Shown here: positions 50,363 to 60,075 of the stretch, one piece after another
Numbering within the stretch: the stretch's first letter is position 1
How the letters are laid out: each line of letters starts with the position of its first letter
Source: an uncultured Chloroflexia bacterium
Lineage (GTDB): Bacteria; Chloroflexota; Anaerolineae; CG2-30-64-16
DNA length: 64,000 nucleotides
Reading direction: 5' to 3'
NCBI GenBank assembly: GCA_963810095.1
Contig: CAWEMM010000012.1
Coordinates: forward strand, 160,001 to 224,000
Program-made: the position numbers and the translations under genes
Notes under the pieces: model-generated
The model's database searches: none
What the model was told of the DNA's origin: nothing
The model's input: the letters and a program-made list of their open reading frames with translations, nothing else

Positions 50363-52355
50363 GCTCGGCTTCTACGTGGAGAACACCACCGTGCCCTTCC
50401 TGCGCGACGCGTTCGTGAAGGTGAAGCCGCCCGTGCTGCTCATCCACGCCCAGGACCGCGGGCTGCTGCCGCGAAATCCGCAACACGCTGTCGCCCGACA
50501 CGTTTGTCATCGGCCGCATGTACGTCACGCCGGCCGAGCAGAGCGCGTGGCTCACCGGCGGCGACCCCGAGGGCGCGGGACGGGCCTTTGCCGAGCGCAT
50601 CATCAACTATGACTTCCAACTGGCCAAGGAGAAGGGCACGAACGGCCGGCTGCTGGTCGACGCGTGGATGAGCCTCAACGAGCCCGTCCGCGGTCCGGCC
50701 AGCTTTCCCGACGGGAATCCGGACGCCGAGACGCTGGCGCGCTACGACGCGCTCGACCGTTTCCAGGCCGCGTTCCTCGAACGGCTGCGGGCCGAAGGGC
50801 TGGAGGGCGTGGCCTTCAACTTCGCGGCCGGCAACTTCACCCGCAAGAACGATATCGTGCAGTACTTCCCGCGTACATTGGCCGCCTACACCTACCTGGG
50901 GCTGCATGAGTACGGCTGGCCCAACCTCATGCCGCGCGCCGACACGTCCTCGTCCGCGCTGACCTACCGGACCGTGATGGAAGGCATCCGGGAGCGCTAC
51001 GGGAACAGGCATAAGCTGATCATTACCGAAGCCGGGCTCGCTCGCATGTACCGCTACCCCAACGACCCGGCAGGCGACGTGGGTTGGCTGTACGGGGGAG
51101 AAACGATTTCCGAGGACCAGTACTGGCAGTCGCTGGCATGGTACAACAACCAGATGTTGCAGGACGACTACGTAATGGGAGCCAGCCTGTACCAGGTGGG
51201 GCACGGGGGGCGGTGGGAAACCTTCCGGCACCTGGGCGTGAACAACCAGGGCCAGCCGATCCTGCTGATGGACAAGATCGCCACCCTGAACTCGACCGCC
51301 GCGCCGCCGCCTCCCCCGGCCGAGCCGCCCCCAACGCCTGTTCCGCCGCCCGGCGACGAGCGGGCGAAGCTGCTGGCGCGCGTGCGAAGCCGTGCGGTCC
51401 GCAATGCAAGCTGCGGTTGCGGCGACCGACGCGTTCACGGCGGACCTGGCGAAGGCCCGCGCCGCCCTGGGACAGGCCAGCCAAGGCCTCTCTGCGGCCC
51501 CCACCCCCGAGGCCGTGCAGGCGCTGCTCGACCGCCTCACCGCGCTCGACGCCGCGCTCGCGGCCCTGCCGGCAGGATCGGCCGTAGACCCTGCACAACT
51601 GCGCGGGCAGATCGACGCGTTACGGCAGCAAACCAGCGCCCTGCTGGCCGCGGCGCGCAGCGTGGCCGGCCTGGGTGCGCAGGTCAAGGCGGCACAGGCC
51701 CGGCTGGCGGCATCTGACGCGAAGGCGGCGGAAGCGGCAAGGACGAAACAGGCGTCCAACCAGGTGCTCGGCCAGGCGAACACGCTCGCGGGCGAAATCC
51801 AGCCCGTGCCGCGCGCCCTTCCCGTCGGGCGGGGCCTGGAGGCGGCCGGGGAACCGGACGTGCAGGATGTCTCGGCGGCGCTGGCGGAGATCGTTCCAGA
51901 CCCCGGCCCGGCTCGTCCCTTGAGCGACGTCCGGCGCATCGTGATCCATCATACCGGCATGGCCGCAGATGCGACGCCGGAGGCGATCTTGCGCCGGACA
52001 GCAGGGCAGGGACGCCGCGGACTGCCCTATCACTACCTGGTCGACGGCGACGGGATGGTCTCGCAACTCGCCCCCCTGGATGTGGCGGTGAATCAATCGC
52101 GGCTCGCTGCGGTCGATGCGGATGCGATCGGGGTCACGCTGGGGGGCGACTTCGACCTGGCCGTCCCAACCGAGGCGCAGATGGCCGCTGCAGCCGAGCT
52201 GCTGGCCGGCCTGCTCCGCGATTTCGGGTTGGCCGTGAACGACATCTACGGCCGGAGCGAAACTGGAAGGGGGCGTCACCTCGCCCGGCCTGCAATGGAC
52301 GCAGGGCGTGCGCTGGGGCGACGACCTGAAGGCGCGTGTGGCAGCGATGGCCTAG
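50355..52355 (+). CDS. Second GH-A-like glycoside hydrolase + Pro linker + coiled coil + pseudo-amidase (apparent frameshifts near 50470, 51385 and 52260)
   Basis: Stitched ORFs 50355.., 50518.. and 51392..; 'SLNEP', 'LHEYGWP', 'IITEAG'; 'IVIHHT', 'YHY', tail 'IYGRSELEGGVTSPG...AMA*'. Confidence 0.7.
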
Positions 52356-52442
52356 ACTGATCGCAACATGTGGTTGCACATGGCTTTTCCACTTTGCGAC
52401 TAAACGCTCACCCCGCTGCGGCGGACAACGCGGGACAAAATA

Positions 52443-52528
52443 GGACACTGATTGGACCGATTTGACTGATTATCACGATCTTTTCCCGAAGGACTTGCGG
52501 ATCAGTTCAATCAGTTGCATCAGTGTCC
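52443..52528. repeat. Palindromic repeat, CTGATT ~9-mer family
   Basis: GGACACTGATTGGACCGATTTGACTGATT ... ATCAGTTCAATCAGTTGCATCAGTGTCC. Confidence 0.7.
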
Positions 52529-52578
52529 CATTTCGGATCGGTCCGGGAACGGGGGCAGGCATTCGGAGCTTTCGCGAT

Positions 52579-52606
52579 TTGACACCGCGCCAGACTCCTG
52601 TATAAT
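52579..52606 (+). promoter_or_regulatory. Consensus sigma70 promoter of the lysine operon
   Basis: TTGACA (52579-84), 16 nt, TATAAT (52601-06). Confidence 0.85.
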
Positions 52607-52636
52607 GCCGCCAACGTAACAAGGAATACATTACTC

Positions 52637-52711
52637 ATGATGCAACTGTCCAAGCGCTCCAAGTCCAAGAAGCCTTCCCTCGCCTGGGACGGCCGTTGGC
52701 GCTTGGGGTAG
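52637..52711 (+). CDS. Putative attenuator leader peptide 1 (MMQLSKRSKSKKPSLAWDGRWRLG)
   Basis: SD-like AAGGA at 52621; 4 AAG Lys and 3 Arg codons; followed by a terminator. Confidence 0.75.
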   Translation: MMQLSKRSKSKKPSLAWDGRWRLG

Positions 52712-52736
52712 CAGACAGACTGCCCCAGAAGTCCAA

Positions 52737-52779
52737 AAGCCCTGCCAGGCCGAAGTGCCAAAGGCAGGGTTTCTTTTTT
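52737..52779 (+). terminator. Attenuator terminator 1
   Basis: AAGCCCTGCC ... GGCAGGGTTT stem followed by CTTTTTT. Confidence 0.8.
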
Positions 52780-52832
52780 GTTCTCACCTGGCCGTCGCCA
52801 GGATGAGACCAAAAAGAAAACAGGAGAAACAC

Positions 52833-52898
52833 ATGCAGCTTAAGACAAAGCGCAGCGCGAAGCGGAACACCAGCTTGCCGGACCGGAGGTCTGGATAG
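52833..52898 (+). CDS. Putative attenuator leader peptide 2 (MQLKTKRSAKRNTSLPDRRSG)
   Basis: SD AGGAG at 52822-26; 3 AAG Lys and 4 Arg codons; in-frame upstream ATG at 52803 could add MRPKRKQEKH; followed by a terminator. Confidence 0.72.
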   Translation: MQLKTKRSAKRNTSLPDRRSG

Positions 52899-52930
52899 GC
52901 CGTCTCCGCGCACCCATGCGTCGTGCATGC

Positions 52931-52969
52931 AGCCCCTTCCGCCCAGCCGGCGGAGGGGGCTTTTTATTT
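52931..52969 (+). terminator. Attenuator terminator 2, directly upstream of lysW
   Basis: AGCCCCTTCCGCC / GGCGGAGGGGGCT stem followed by TTTTATTT. Confidence 0.85.
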
Positions 52970-52994
52970 CATCTTTGATAAGGAGAATCCTACG

Positions 52995-53165
52995 ATGGTA
53001 CTCAATGCACTCTGTCCCGAATGTGAAGGCGAAATCGCCCTGCGCGACCCAATCATGGGCGAGATCGTCCCATGCGCCTCGTGTGGCGCCGACCTGGAAG
53101 TGATGTCGCTCGACCCGGTTCAGCTGGAACTGGCGCCGGAAGAGCAGGAGGACTGGGGCGAATGA
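52995..53165 (+). CDS. lysW: Alpha-aminoadipate carrier protein LysW
   Basis: SD AAGGAG; CPEC...CASCG zinc ribbon; C-terminal EDWGE. Confidence 0.97.
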
Positions 53166-54019
53166 CGCGCGTTACCGTGATTGCCTCCCGGATCCGAGTG
53201 GAGGAGAAGCTGCTGCTGCAGGCCCTGGAAGCGGCGGGTGCAGAGGTGAGCCTCGTGAACGACGACGAGATCATCTTCCCCGTCCCGGGTCAGGCGCCCT
53301 TCCAGGCCGACGTGGTGCTCGAACGCTCGCTCAGCGCGGCCCGCGGCATCTATGCCCTGCGCCTGCTGCAAGCGGCGGGCGTGCCCACCGTCAACCGCTA
53401 TGACACCGCCGCGACGTGCTGGGACAAGCTGCTGACCTCCGCGGCCCTGGCCCAGTGCGGCGTGCCCCAGCCCCGCATCCGTGTCGCCTTCACGAGCGAA
53501 TCGGCGCTGCAGGCCATCGAGGAGCTCGGCTACCCGGTCGTGCTCAAGCCGGTGGTCGGCTCGTGGGGGCGCCTGCTTGCCCGCATCAACGACCGGGACG
53601 CCGCGGAAGCCGTGCTGGAGCACAAGGAGACGCTCGGCTCCTACCAGCACAGCATCTTCTACATCCAGGAGTACGTCGCCAAACCGGGTCGCGACATTCG
53701 GGCCTTCGTGGTGGGCGACGACACCATCTCCGCGATCTACCGGGCATCGGGCCACTGGATCACGAACACGGCCCGGGGCGGCGCGGCCAGCAACTGCCCC
53801 GTCACGCCCGAGTTGGACGCGCTGTGCCGGCAGACGGCTCAGGCAGTCGGCGGGGGCGTGCTGGCGATCGACGTGCTGGAGGACCCGGACCGGGGCTTCC
53901 TGGTGAATGAGGTCAACCACACGATGGAGTTCCGTAACAGCATTCATACGACGGGCGTGGATATTCCGGCGGTGGTGGCACGCTACGTGGTTGGCTTGGC
54001 CGGCGTGAGCGAGCGCTAA
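53162..54019 (+). CDS. lysX: LysW-alpha-aminoadipate ligase LysX (ATP-grasp)
   Basis: 'RIRVEEKLL', '[11 protein letters not shown]', '[14 protein letters not shown]', '[11 protein letters not shown]'. Confidence 0.95.
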
Positions 54020-54114
54020 CACAAAGACGCAAAGACACAAGGACACGAAGGTTCACAAAGAACAGTACCTGAGGTCATCTTTGTGCGCCTTCGGTTCTTT
54101 GTGACTTTGTGTTG
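54018..54114. repeat. Palindromic repeat, ACAAAGAC family, between lysX and lysY
   Basis: AACACAAAGACGCAAAGACACAAGGACACGAAG ... CTTCGGTTCTTTGTGACTTTGTGTT. Confidence 0.8.
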
Positions 54115-54127
54115 AAGGAGCATTCAC

Positions 54128-55204
54128 ATGACAGAAACTACGTTGGGAACGAGAATGAGTCAGGCAGCAGTGAGCGTGGTTGGCGGGTCGGGCTACGGCG
54201 GCGGCGAGCTGATCCGGCTGCTGCTTGGCCACCCCTGCGTCGACCTGGCGCAGGTCACGTCCGAGTCCCACGCGGGCGAGTTCGTCCACACGCTGCACCC
54301 CAACCTGCGCCCGTCGGGCCGCCGCGAGCCCATCCGCTTCACCAGCCTGGGCGAGTTGGGGCCGTGCGACGTGCTATTCCTGGCCCTCCCCCACGGCGAA
54401 GCGCAGCGCCGCATCGCCCACTTCGCCACCCTCGCCCCCCGCATCGTCGACCTCTCGGCCGACTTCCGCCTCTCCGACCTCGACCTTTACCGGCAGACGT
54501 ATGGCGCAGAGCACCTCGCCCCCCAGTTCGTGCCCGACTTCGCTTATGGCCTGCCCGAGGCCAACCGGGACGCGCTGCGCTCGGCCAGGTACGCCAGCGG
54601 CGTCGGGTGCAATGCGACGGCCGCAAACCTGGCGCTGCTGCCGCTCGTGCGAGCGGGCTTGCTGCGCACCGACCTGCCTGTGATCGTGGACGTGAAGGCC
54701 GGGTCGTCAGAGGGCGGCGCGAGCCACAGCGCGGCGAGCCATCACCCCGAACGGGCCGGTGCGATTCGCTCGTTCGCCCCGACCCGTCACCGCCACGAGG
54801 CGGAGGCCCGGCAGGTGCTCGGCCGGCCCGACGTCTACCTGTCCGTGACGTCCATCGAGCTCGTGCGGGGCGCGCTGGCGACGGCTCACGGCTGGGCCCG
54901 GCCGGGCACGACGGAAAAAGAAGTCTGGCGGGCCTACCGGGCCGCCTACGGCGCCGAGCCGTTCGTCCGCATTGTCCACGACCGCGGGGGCATCTACCGC
55001 CACCCCGAGCCGAAGCTGCTGGCCGGGACGAACCTGGCCGACGTCGGCTGGGAGCTGGACCAGTCGACTGGTCGCATCGTAGCCCTGGCCGCGATCGACA
55101 ACCTCGGCAAGGGCGCGGCCGGTACGGCCGTGCAGTGCATGAACCTGATGCTGGGCTGGGACGAAACCCTCGGCCTGGATGCGTGCGGGCTGCACCCGGT
55201 CTGA
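54128..55204 (+). CDS. lysY: LysW-gamma-aminoadipyl-phosphate reductase LysY (ArgC family)
   Basis: 'GGSGYGGGELIRLL', 'DLSADFR', 'GCNAT', 'GSSEGG...SHHPER', 'IDNLGKGAAG'. Confidence 0.92.
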   Translation: MTETTLGTRMSQAAVSVVGGSGYGGGELIRLLLGHPCVDLAQVTSESHAGEFVHTLHPNLRPSGRREPIRFTSLGELGPCDVLFLALPHGEAQRRIAHFATLAPRIVDLSADFRLSDLDLYRQTYGAEHLAPQFVPDFAYGLPEANRDALRSARYASGVGCNATAANLALLPLVRAGLLRTDLPVIVDVKAGSSEGGASHSAASHHPERAGAIRSFAPTRHRHEAEARQVLGRPDVYLSVTSIELVRGALATAHGWARPGTTEKEVWRAYRAAYGAEPFVRIVHDRGGIYRHPEPKLLAGTNLADVGWELDQSTGRIVALAAIDNLGKGAAGTAVQCMNLMLGWDETLGLDACGLHPV

Positions 55205-58743: not shown

Positions 58744-60075
58744 ATGGGAGATACATTTGCGCAGAAGGCGCTGGCGCGGGCGGCCGGGCTGGAGCACGTC
58801 GTGGTGGGCCAGATCGTCGACGCCCGTCCCGACGTGATACTCAGCCACGATAACACCGCCGCCATTGCCCGCCTGTTCGCCACGCTGGGCCAGGCACGCG
58901 TCCTCCACCCCGAGCGGCTGGCGATTGTACTGGATCATGCCGTGCCGCCGCCCACCGCCGAGCATGCGCAGAACCACGCGGACGTGCGGCGTTTCGTCGA
59001 GGAACAGGGGATCGGGCGCCCGGGGGCGGGCCACTTCTACGACGCCGGCCGCGGCATCTGCCACCAGGTCGTCGGCGAGGACGCGCTCGATCCTGCCGGG
59101 CCAGACCATCCTCGGAGCCGACAGTCACACCACGCATCACGGCTGGCTGGGCGCCTTCGGCGCCGGCATCGGGCGCAGCGAGGTGGCCGCGCTGTGGGCC
59201 ACGGGCGAACTCTGGCTGCGGGTGCCCGAGACAATCCGTGTCGAGTTGACCGGCAGCCTGCGGCCCGGACTCACCGCGAAGGACCTGGGGCTGTGGCTGC
59301 TCCGACTGTTAGGGCCGGAGGCGGGCATCTACCGGGCCGTCGAGATCGGCGGGCCGGGCGTGGGCACCCTGTCCGTCGAGAGCCGCATGGTGCATCCCGA
59401 ACCTGCTGGCCGAGTCGGGCGCAAAGAACGCGTACGTGGAACCCGACGCGGCCGTGTTCGGCTGGCTGGCCGGGCGGCTGGCACGGCGCACGGGTGAGCC
59501 GGTGGCAGACTGCCGGCAGCCACATCGAGGCCGGCGCGCTCTACCCTGACCCGGACGCTGCCTACGAACGGAGGCACGTTGTGGACCTGGCCGCGCTCGA
59601 GCCCGTCGTCGCGGTCCCGCACAACCCGGCAAACATCGCGCCGCTCTCTGAGGTCGCCGGCGTGCCCGTCCAGCAGGCATTCATCGGCACCTGCACGAAC
59701 GGGCGGCTGGAAGACCTGGCCGCGGCCGCGGCCGTGCTGCGCGGGCCCGGCGGCCAGGTGCGCCAGGTTGCCCGGGGCACCCGGCTGGTCGTCATTCCCG
59801 CGTCGAGCGAAGTGCTGCAAGCCGCGCTGGCCGCGGGGTACGTGGAGACATTCCTCGCCGCGGGGGCCATGATCGGCGTCCCGGGCTGCGGTCCGTGCAT
59901 GGGCAACCACCTGGGCGTGCCGGCCGCCGGCGAGACCGTGATCAGCACGGCGAACCGCAACTTCAAAGGCCGCATGGGCAACCCGGCTGCGCGGATCTAC
60001 CTGGCCAGCCCCCAGGTCGTCGCCGCCAGCGCGGTCCTCGGCCGGATCGGCGACGTGCACGAGATAATGGACTAA
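58744..60075 (+). CDS. lysT: Homoaconitase large subunit (three apparent +1 indels near 59089, 59393 and 59520)
   Basis: 'SHDN', 'LDH', 'GICHQ', 'GADSHT' (shifted frame), 'GTCTNGR', 'CGPCMG', '[12 protein letters not shown]'; operon context. Confidence 0.85.

Follow-up and report, generated by a model that had tools for sequence, protein, structure and literature searches.

The lysine operon of an uncultured Chloroflexia bacterium, contained in a 64,000-nt stretch of contig CAWEMM010000012.1 (hereafter, the window), is preceded by a leader that most probably carries two classical ribosome-mediated transcription attenuators in series, both sensing lysyl-tRNA. This reading was reached by comparative and in silico analysis only. 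An original prediction for this DNA had placed a promoter, a short open reading frame (ORF1), terminator 1, a second short frame (ORF2), terminator 2, and lysW in this order, and all six were found at the positions proposed. Its central claim, two attenuators in series ahead of the LysW operon, was extended to an arrangement of the whole bacterial family, with RNA pairings that fit the classical model.

The promoter (52579..52606; plus strand, as for all features of the leader) is composed of TTGACA (52579-84) and TATAAT (52601-06) separated by 16 nt, with 12 of 12 consensus matches, and a scan of 51500-54500 detected 2 promoter-like sites versus a mean of 0.3 for shuffled sequences. ORF1 (52637..52711; 24 codons) encodes MMQLSKRSKSKKPSLAWDGRWRLG, and its Lys codons are located at 52652, 52661, 52667, and 52670. 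Terminator 1 (52737..52779) consists of a hairpin at 52737-52772 followed by the T-run TTTCTTTTTT, with a fold energy of −20.9 kcal/mol; it was overlooked by the terminator scan because of an internal loop in the hairpin top. ORF2 (52833..52898; 21 codons starting with ATG at 52833) encodes MQLKTKRSAKRNTSLPDRRSG, with Lys codons at 52842, 52848, and 52860 and Arg codons at 52851, 52863, 52884, and 52887; in the ORF listing it falls within a longer frame starting at GTG 52755. By sequence reading, its Shine-Dalgarno (SD) sequence AGGAG (52822..52826), of canonical form, stands 6 nt ahead of the ATG. Terminator 2 (52931..52970), detected by the terminator scan, has a 13-bp stem including 10 G-C pairs at 52931-52961 and then TTTTATTT. 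The first gene of the operon, lysW (52995..53165), gave 71.1 bits for NCBIfam TIGR01206 (cut-off, 53.2). The leader of 384 nt folds at −166 kcal/mol versus −125.5 ± 6.0 for 100 shuffles (z = −6.76). Downstream of lysW are genes for lysX, an argC-type reductase (lysY), a kinase (lysZ), a LysJ-type transaminase, homocitrate synthase, and a homoaconitase subunit; the lysZ kinase gave 324 bits for the NCBIfam [LysW]-aminoadipate kinase model (cut-off, 223). Judged from these genes, the operon is the alpha-aminoadipate (AAA) lysine operon and is specific for Lys. A short translatable ORF is thus located between the promoter and the first gene, and an intrinsic terminator between each leader ORF and the gene. 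This is the anatomy of the trp- and his-type attenuators, and attenuator function is predicted from it.

Conservation of this leader was examined in relatives. A search for LysX in 41 related genomes gave 30 loci (loci in general are designated below by L-numbers), and lysW was found directly upstream of lysX in all 30. Family-level counts refer to 22 lysW loci from the window's own family (f1), the genomes of which are related and so not independent. Alignment of the upstream regions of lysW, which the original prediction had proposed as a check, indicated conservation of both the short Lys ORFs and the terminators. An ORF1 homologue and the terminator 1 hairpin with its T-run were detected in 22/22 loci (terminator 1, −19.7 to −26.7 kcal/mol), the family consensus of the peptide being ...S-K-[C/R]-S-K-S-K-K-P-S-L-A-C-R-D-G-x-L-C-L-G-stop. 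An ORF2 homologue was found in 20/22 loci and was followed by terminator 2 in all 20 (−23.8 to −46.8 kcal/mol). Its end reads ...K-R-A-K-K-Q-x-x-S-L-P-D-W-R-S-G-stop in most genera and contains K-T-K-R-x-x-K in the window's genus, and AGGAGAAACACATG, the region of the ORF2 SD sequence, is retained in all 8 loci of this genus. The two exceptions, L014 and L025, retain terminator 2 without ORF2. A near-consensus promoter is located at a constant distance from ORF1 in 21 of the 22 loci, the 22nd being interrupted by a contig end. No promoter-like site was detected between terminator 1 and lysW in any of the 22 loci, indicating that both modules are arranged in series on one transcript. Two complete units of sensor plus expression platform, without intervening promoter, thus form what is defined as tandem cis-regulators.

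For extension of this set, public genome contigs were scanned with a degenerate 20-nt pattern. The hits were mostly chance matches in unrelated phyla, and only the loci confirmed by the DNA profile were kept. At least 19 public loci were obtained, 12 of them duplicating loci already in the set and at least 7 being new, and the titles of their records name Anaerolineae, Anaerolineales, or Chloroflexota metagenome-assembled genomes. Taking the family loci together with the public copies among the matches listed, at least 29 distinct sequences of module 1 are at hand. Within the genome itself, the DNA profile of either module detected its own site only, and no second copy was found. Duplication of one module had been suggested from the common layout of the two peptides; the common layout was recognized, but each profile finds its own site only, and a duplication is at most possible. 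A regular-expression scan of the same genome for other leaders of the ...PD..SG type gave nothing convincing, its length filter excluding even ORF2 of the window.

Both leader ORFs are enriched in codons for the end product of the downstream operon. Against the amino-acid background of the long ORFs in the window (K, 2.2%; R, 7.9%), Lys is over-represented in ORF1 (4/24, 17%; P = 0.0018) and in ORF2 (3/21, 14%; P = 0.011), and no enrichment was observed for Arg (P = 0.29 for ORF1 and 0.078 for ORF2). The exclusive use of AAG, to which attention had been drawn, is correct and yet unremarkable, AAG being the customary Lys codon here (68/73). The pattern K-x-x-K-x-K-K was present in 29/29 distinct ORF1 sequences, of which only the first K counts independently, K-x-K-K having belonged to the search anchor; K-R-A-K-K is found in most ORF2 homologues. 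The Arg following the first Lys of ORF1 is exchanged with Cys or Ser across the 29 sequences, and relatives have K, Q, or R at ORF2 position 11. The Arg of the ORF2 K-R pair (CGC) is kept in 19/20 loci; because this codon lies inside a GCGCGC helix, RNA pairing explains its conservation.

The RNA structure of module 1 was then analyzed. In the minimum free energy (MFE) fold, the Lys-codon stretch at 52650-57 (CCAAGCGC) pairs with the ORF end at 52699-706, forming a helix P1 (52650..52706) that encloses an inner hairpin, GCC.UCCC / GGGA.GGC; this pairing had been pointed out in the original prediction. In the family alignment, 86% of cells were paired for P1 and 97% for the inner helix, and the value for the whole terminated state was 93.8% (33-55% for slid controls). 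The antiterminator strand (52680..52694; UCGCCUGG...) is complementary to the 5' arm plus loop of terminator 1 (about 52737-52753). For the subtype of the window, UCGCCUGG (52680-87) pairs with CCAGG-C-CGA (52745-53). For most relatives, GGCCUGCAGGG pairs with CCCUG(C)CAGGCC to form an antiterminator of 11 bp, for which 98.3% of cells were paired (13-60% for slid partners).

The influence of the ribosome was simulated by masked folding, in which transcripts were cut just before the 3' arm of the terminator and 29 nt were masked around the A-site codon. Folding with the entire terminator had been uninformative, the terminator winning throughout, and was replaced by the use of cut transcripts; the fraction of the paired 5' arm was also rejected as a metric, because a small hairpin within the top of the terminator confounded it, and the number of leader-to-terminator pairs was counted instead. 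For module 1, the expected number of these pairs was 11.7 with the ribosome on the Lys codons, 2.8 with the ribosome 4-9 codons later, and 5.4 for free RNA. The difference between Lys and later positions was 4 pairs or more in 20/22 loci, the window included. For the window, A-site positions on codons 1-12 allowed the antiterminator to form, and positions three or more codons later did not.

In module 2, RNAalifold detected, unaided, a P1 helix between the Lys/Arg codons (GCGCGCU) and AGCGCGC just past the stop codon, an inner hairpin A:B, and the terminator. The A:B hairpin of the window (52878..52894; CCGGACC / GGUCUGG) is located just ahead of the stop codon, and that of the family (GCCAGAC / GUCUGG, RNAalifold) contains the stop codon; the helix co-varies in the wider alignment. 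For 37 sequences fitted to the model, including one reverse-strand match and two terminator-only matches, 94.6% of cells were paired and both partners vary in 20 of the 26 pairs; none of 500 shuffles equalled this level, and slid controls stayed at or below 52%. The loop of terminator 2, an element that usually varies without constraint, is conserved and is complementary to strand A of ORF2 in 20/20 loci (−10.9 to −22.3 kcal/mol), the complementarity being weakest in the genus of the window (window, −12.7 kcal/mol). Strand A of the window and CGGAGG (52884-89) are complementary to the 5' arm and loop of terminator 2 (52935-41 and 52947-51); the pairing of CGGAGG with the 5' arm, another item of the original prediction, therefore does exist. 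By masked folding of module 2, 13.8 pairs were expected with the ribosome on the Lys codons, 7.0 with the ribosome between the Pro-Asp codons and the stop, and 12.3 for free RNA. The difference between Lys and further positions was at least 4 pairs in 13/19 loci. An antiterminator excluding the terminator was thus identified for both modules, the 11-bp helix in module 1 and the loop pairing, weak in the window, in module 2. Folding under ribosome occlusion, also proposed at the outset, fits the model for module 1, and for module 2 it does so at the family level and not in the window.

Variants among the relatives indicate the level at which the leader is conserved. In L011, a 1-nt insertion truncates ORF1 (...KKPSLALQGR-stop); in L013, a substitution gives a premature stop of ORF1; and in 4 of 20 ORF2 homologues, a 1-nt deletion in the hairpin loop changes the frame to ...PDCVWIGR-stop. 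The nucleotide sequence around all these changes is preserved. Because frameshifts and early stops alter the C-termini and leave the RNA intact, the conservation is one of RNA rather than of peptide. The same variants argue against a functional small protein and against an arrest peptide like TnaC, and a conserved C-terminal arrest peptide of the TnaC or SpeFL type was not found.

Covariance models of the modules were then searched against other families. Strong matches to the model of module 1 were obtained in three families; its weak matches, below about 40 bits in the search of the class, were ordinary terminators at gene ends and were discarded. The model of module 2 matched 10 of 151 sampled genomes of the class. 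Both modules are located ahead of lysW in one other family (L153). In another family (L165), module 1 is followed by a second terminator before lysW without ORF2. A single Lys leader resembling module 2 was found before lysW at L160 by the model and at L027 and L028 by eye; the latter two were missed by the covariance model and are known from sequence reading. The Lys version also precedes a homocitrate synthase gene passing its model (L159) and a homocitrate-synthase-like gene under the cut-off (L155). In another family of the class, a scaffold resembling module 2 and carrying six Arg codons (MQLCFTRARRNRFRRPDHPSG; MPVWFIRARRNRFRRPDHPSG in the second genome) was found before the gene for argininosuccinate synthase (argG) in two of three genomes of a genus (L157/L174 and L175), the peptide ending in ...RRPDHPSG.

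The genome of the window also contains a separate argC-argB-argD cluster on another contig (G000 C10; leader region at about 197670-197930, minus strand). Upstream of argC lie a promoter belonging to the cluster itself, a small ORF in which three Arg codons follow one another (LAISLRFPRRRILIRAG), and a strong terminator; of 15 family genomes queried for DNA similar to this region, 13 gave a match (L176-L190). Among 12 loci of relatives in which this leader was read, the RRR run was present in 11, and 10 of these contain ...SLRFPRRR... or ...LRFPRRR.... The argC leader looks like an arginine leader-peptide attenuator, and the same organism appears to match leader to pathway, with Arg codons ahead of its arginine genes and Lys codons ahead of its lysine genes. 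Among the indirect evidence, natural codon swaps of this kind, each matching the downstream pathway, argue most strongly that the ORFs are read and that the signal lies in their codons. A broader proposal, which we consider possible and on balance doubtful, is that Anaerolineae possess modular, "reprogrammable" attenuators. One RNA scaffold, with a codon run in P1, a hairpin at ...P-D-x-x-S-G-stop, and a terminator with a loop matching this hairpin, would be retargeted by exchange of the codon run (Lys for lysW and homocitrate synthase; Arg for argG). Some families would stack a second Lys unit in front, giving a two-stage multiplicative gate and an ultrasensitive lysine response, and the released leader RNA might persist as a discrete small RNA.

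For the tandem lysine leader, the following mechanism is proposed. The single strong promoter would give rise to a leader RNA in which each module carries 3-4 Lys codons within the 5' strand of the long helix P1, over the inner hairpin. When Lys-tRNA is scarce, a ribosome would stall at the Lys codons and keep P1 open; the downstream segment of the ORF could then pair with the 5' arm or the loop of the terminator, forming the antiterminator, and RNA polymerase would continue. When Lys is plentiful, the ribosome would cover the downstream segment up to the stop codon, the terminator would form, and transcription would stop. Read-through into lysW would require both modules to be open. The response would therefore be the product of two decisions, for which a lower basal level and a steeper response are expected.

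Several observations weigh against this interpretation, in addition to the relatedness of the family genomes and the composition of the 37-sequence alignment. Covariation in module 1 is nearly nil, only 2 pairs changing on both sides, because the module is too conserved. The SD sequence of ORF1 is weak and distant (AAGGA, 11 nt ahead of the ATG), and even with a lenient rule an SD-like motif is absent from 6 of the 29 distinct ORF1 sequences. A ribosome at the stop codon of ORF1 also permits the module 1 antiterminator in masked folds. With the entire terminator present, equilibrium folding favors the terminator at every ribosome position; any switch must therefore be kinetic, as in classical systems, and equilibrium folds do not reveal kinetics. 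In module 2, free truncated RNA cross-pairs as readily as Lys-stalled RNA, the difference between Lys and free RNA reaching 4 pairs in only 2/19 loci. Module 2 of the window itself gave no Lys effect in masked folds (3.9, 3.7, and 3.8 pairs), and only the A site at Arg11 or Thr13 yielded about 9 pairs. In a cross-locus duplex control for ORF2 and the terminator 2 loop, own-locus energies were not consistently better than cross-locus energies, and there was therefore no evidence of locus-specific covariation.

Some of these observations would be accommodated if only one module were a working lysine sensor, the other being a leaky constitutive terminator, a relic, or a sensor of some other signal. 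In the window the weaker module is module 2, with its flat response to Lys position and its weak loop duplex, and the ORF2-less second terminators of L014, L025, and L165 indicate that a terminator can exist without a sensor. On the other hand, ORF2, its Lys codons, the SD sequence, the A:B hairpin, and the complementary terminator loop are retained together in 20/22 family loci, and units resembling module 2 stand alone before lysW or homocitrate synthase in other families. We therefore consider a single working sensor unlikely. A combination of lysine and arginine signals, put forward in the original prediction, would make the Arg codons of ORF1 or ORF2 regulatory as well. Four Arg codons in ORF2, the retention of the K-R Arg in 19/20 homologues, and the maximal antiterminator with the A site on Arg11 (CGG) in masked folds of the window and its closest relative would agree with it. 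Against it stand the lack of Arg enrichment, the variability of the ORF1 Arg and of ORF2 position 11, and the explanation of the CGC codon by GCGCGC pairing. In addition, a ribosome at the two Arg codons of PDRR lies over the antiterminator strand, the operon is specific for Lys, and the arginine genes are located elsewhere with an RRR leader of their own. Only Lys being both conserved and enriched, the combined signal was not upheld, and we regard it as decidedly improbable.

Two further readings dispense with codon reading. One of them supposes that the RNA switches independently of translation, as a riboswitch would or as a leader bound by a protein or a tRNA, and that the ORFs are incidental. 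Conservation mostly at the RNA level and the weak SD sequence of ORF1 are what such a switch would lead one to expect. However, a cmscan search of 51800-53600 against Rfam with E values up to 10 returned nothing beyond chance-level hits, all to unrelated families, and neither a lysine riboswitch (L-box) nor a T-box was detected. Helices or Lys codons account for all the conserved stretches, every copy retains the start, the frame, and the stop, and the codon run becomes Arg before arginine genes. A switch of this kind is thus very improbable. The other reading supposes nascent-peptide arrest in the manner of TnaC or SpeFL, the peptide sensing free lysine in the exit tunnel. The peptides do appear highly conserved (...KSKKPSLACRDG..., ...SLPDWRSG*), but their C-terminus differs in the frameshift and early-stop variants, in which the RNA is preserved, and the logic of arrest would be inverted for a biosynthetic operon; this reading is hardly credible. 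Two ribosome-mediated attenuators, both responding to Lys codons, are retained as the favored interpretation.

Traces of the leader were detected in RNA libraries. In one soil metatranscriptome, short contigs match 52646-52715 exactly, and one exact RNA-library contig of 203 nt, from 52686 to 52888, crosses terminator 1 into ORF2. No contigs were found over 52400-52636 or 52889-53497, and run X2 gave one partial match only. The contigs show neither ends, strand, nor level and so have no bearing on termination, and the library may contain DNA, which also tempers their weight for our interpretation; all that they show is the presence, in an RNA library, of nucleic acid reaching across both modules. 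Run X3 contained a contig of 122 nt (word depth, 241) from a close relative, which aligns with 52637-52725 of the window and covers just ORF1. It carries the GCA insertion typical of the LACRDG subtype, and its loose ends resemble sequencing adapter. Fragments from run X1 end at a similar place, about 52728-52731, just ahead of terminator 1. The X3 and X1 fragments may represent a stable processed leader fragment, which contigs cannot prove.

Other features were noted in and around the leader. Between the modules, the MFE fold contains a spacer hairpin (52770..52820) formed by the U-tract of terminator 1 and an A-tract further downstream. The spacer with this hairpin is not conserved, and relatives have unrelated palindromes at the same place; L010 and L016 have a palindrome in common, GCCAGGCACTTGCGAAGTGCCTGGC, with the appearance of a repetitive extragenic palindromic (REP) element. 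In L019, an in-frame insertion of 78 nt with its own hairpin and repeated CTAAG flanks interrupts the Lys-codon run of ORF2 and has the look of a miniature mobile element. Microsatellite-like arrays (GCGAATCA..., AACCAACC...) are located between terminator 2 and the lysW SD sequence in L006, L015, and L016. Just upstream of the promoter of the window, the A+T-richer segment 52431-52540 contains a long imperfect inverted repeat with five copies of ACTGAT/ATCAGT, which surfaced only through chance-level Rfam hits to microRNA and could be an operator or a repeat element. Within the operon, an apparent frame change was observed in lysJ at about 57289, where the argD-family match is split at C12:217288/217290. 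The homoaconitase large subunit was matched in two stretches (about 59080-59480), the middle looking out-of-frame and an expected motif lying in another frame. These frame changes may be assembly indels or pseudogenes; lysW/lysX of genome G001 are likewise frameshifted in appearance.

Taken together, we read the system as conserved tandem lysine leader-peptide attenuators in a phylum rich in uncultured members and outside Rfam, the mechanism being classical and the stacked arrangement new. The literature searched, which left subscription journals largely outside, contained no account of lysine or LysW leader peptides from Chloroflexota or Anaerolineae; this is not proof of absence. The leader provides an annotation rule for the start and regulation of the LysW lysine operon in Anaerolineae. 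It also provides a natural test of whether the response to an amino acid becomes sharper when two ribosome-based sensors are stacked, an effect that has been proposed for T-boxes and riboswitches in tandem, and the natural Lys/Arg codon-swap variants of a similar scaffold make the mechanism directly testable.

Classical leader-peptide attenuators are those of the trp, his, leu, thr, and pheA systems of Proteobacteria, and nearly all of what is understood about this type of regulation comes from Proteobacteria and a small number of other groups. The only lysine case known to us is that of Thermus. The AAA cluster of Thermus thermophilus is reportedly controlled by a lysine leader peptide that forms a single attenuator with two adjacent Lys codons. 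The present system is similar to the one so reported in that Lys-codon ORFs would control AAA/LysW lysine genes by attenuation, and it is different in having two attenuators with 4 and 3 Lys codons. Attenuation by the his leader peptide is described in the accessible parts of PMC12360218 and PMC9413887. Classical attenuators and the modules described here alike have a small leader ORF in which the cognate codons abound, with the regulatory codons inside the first strand, together with an intrinsic terminator and an antiterminator that cannot coexist with it. Unlike the classical attenuators, two complete units stand here in series, in Chloroflexota (Anaerolineae by record titles) and without Rfam match, and the module 2 antiterminator pairs with the loop of the terminator and not only with its 5' arm. 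The mgtCBR leader belongs to a virulence/Mg2+ operon, and each of its two ORFs responds to a signal of its own. For this Salmonella leader, the accessible part of PMC3641672 describes tandem attenuators with two short ORFs, each expected to govern the choice of stem-loop. In contrast, both ORFs are Lys-rich in the system described here and each has its own intrinsic terminator. Cooperative action and a sharper response have been proposed for double T-boxes (PMC9413887, accessible part). The present leader resembles tandem T-boxes and riboswitches in that two like sensors stand in series before amino-acid genes; those systems, however, sense uncharged tRNA or ligand directly through RNA, whereas the sensor here would be the translating ribosome.

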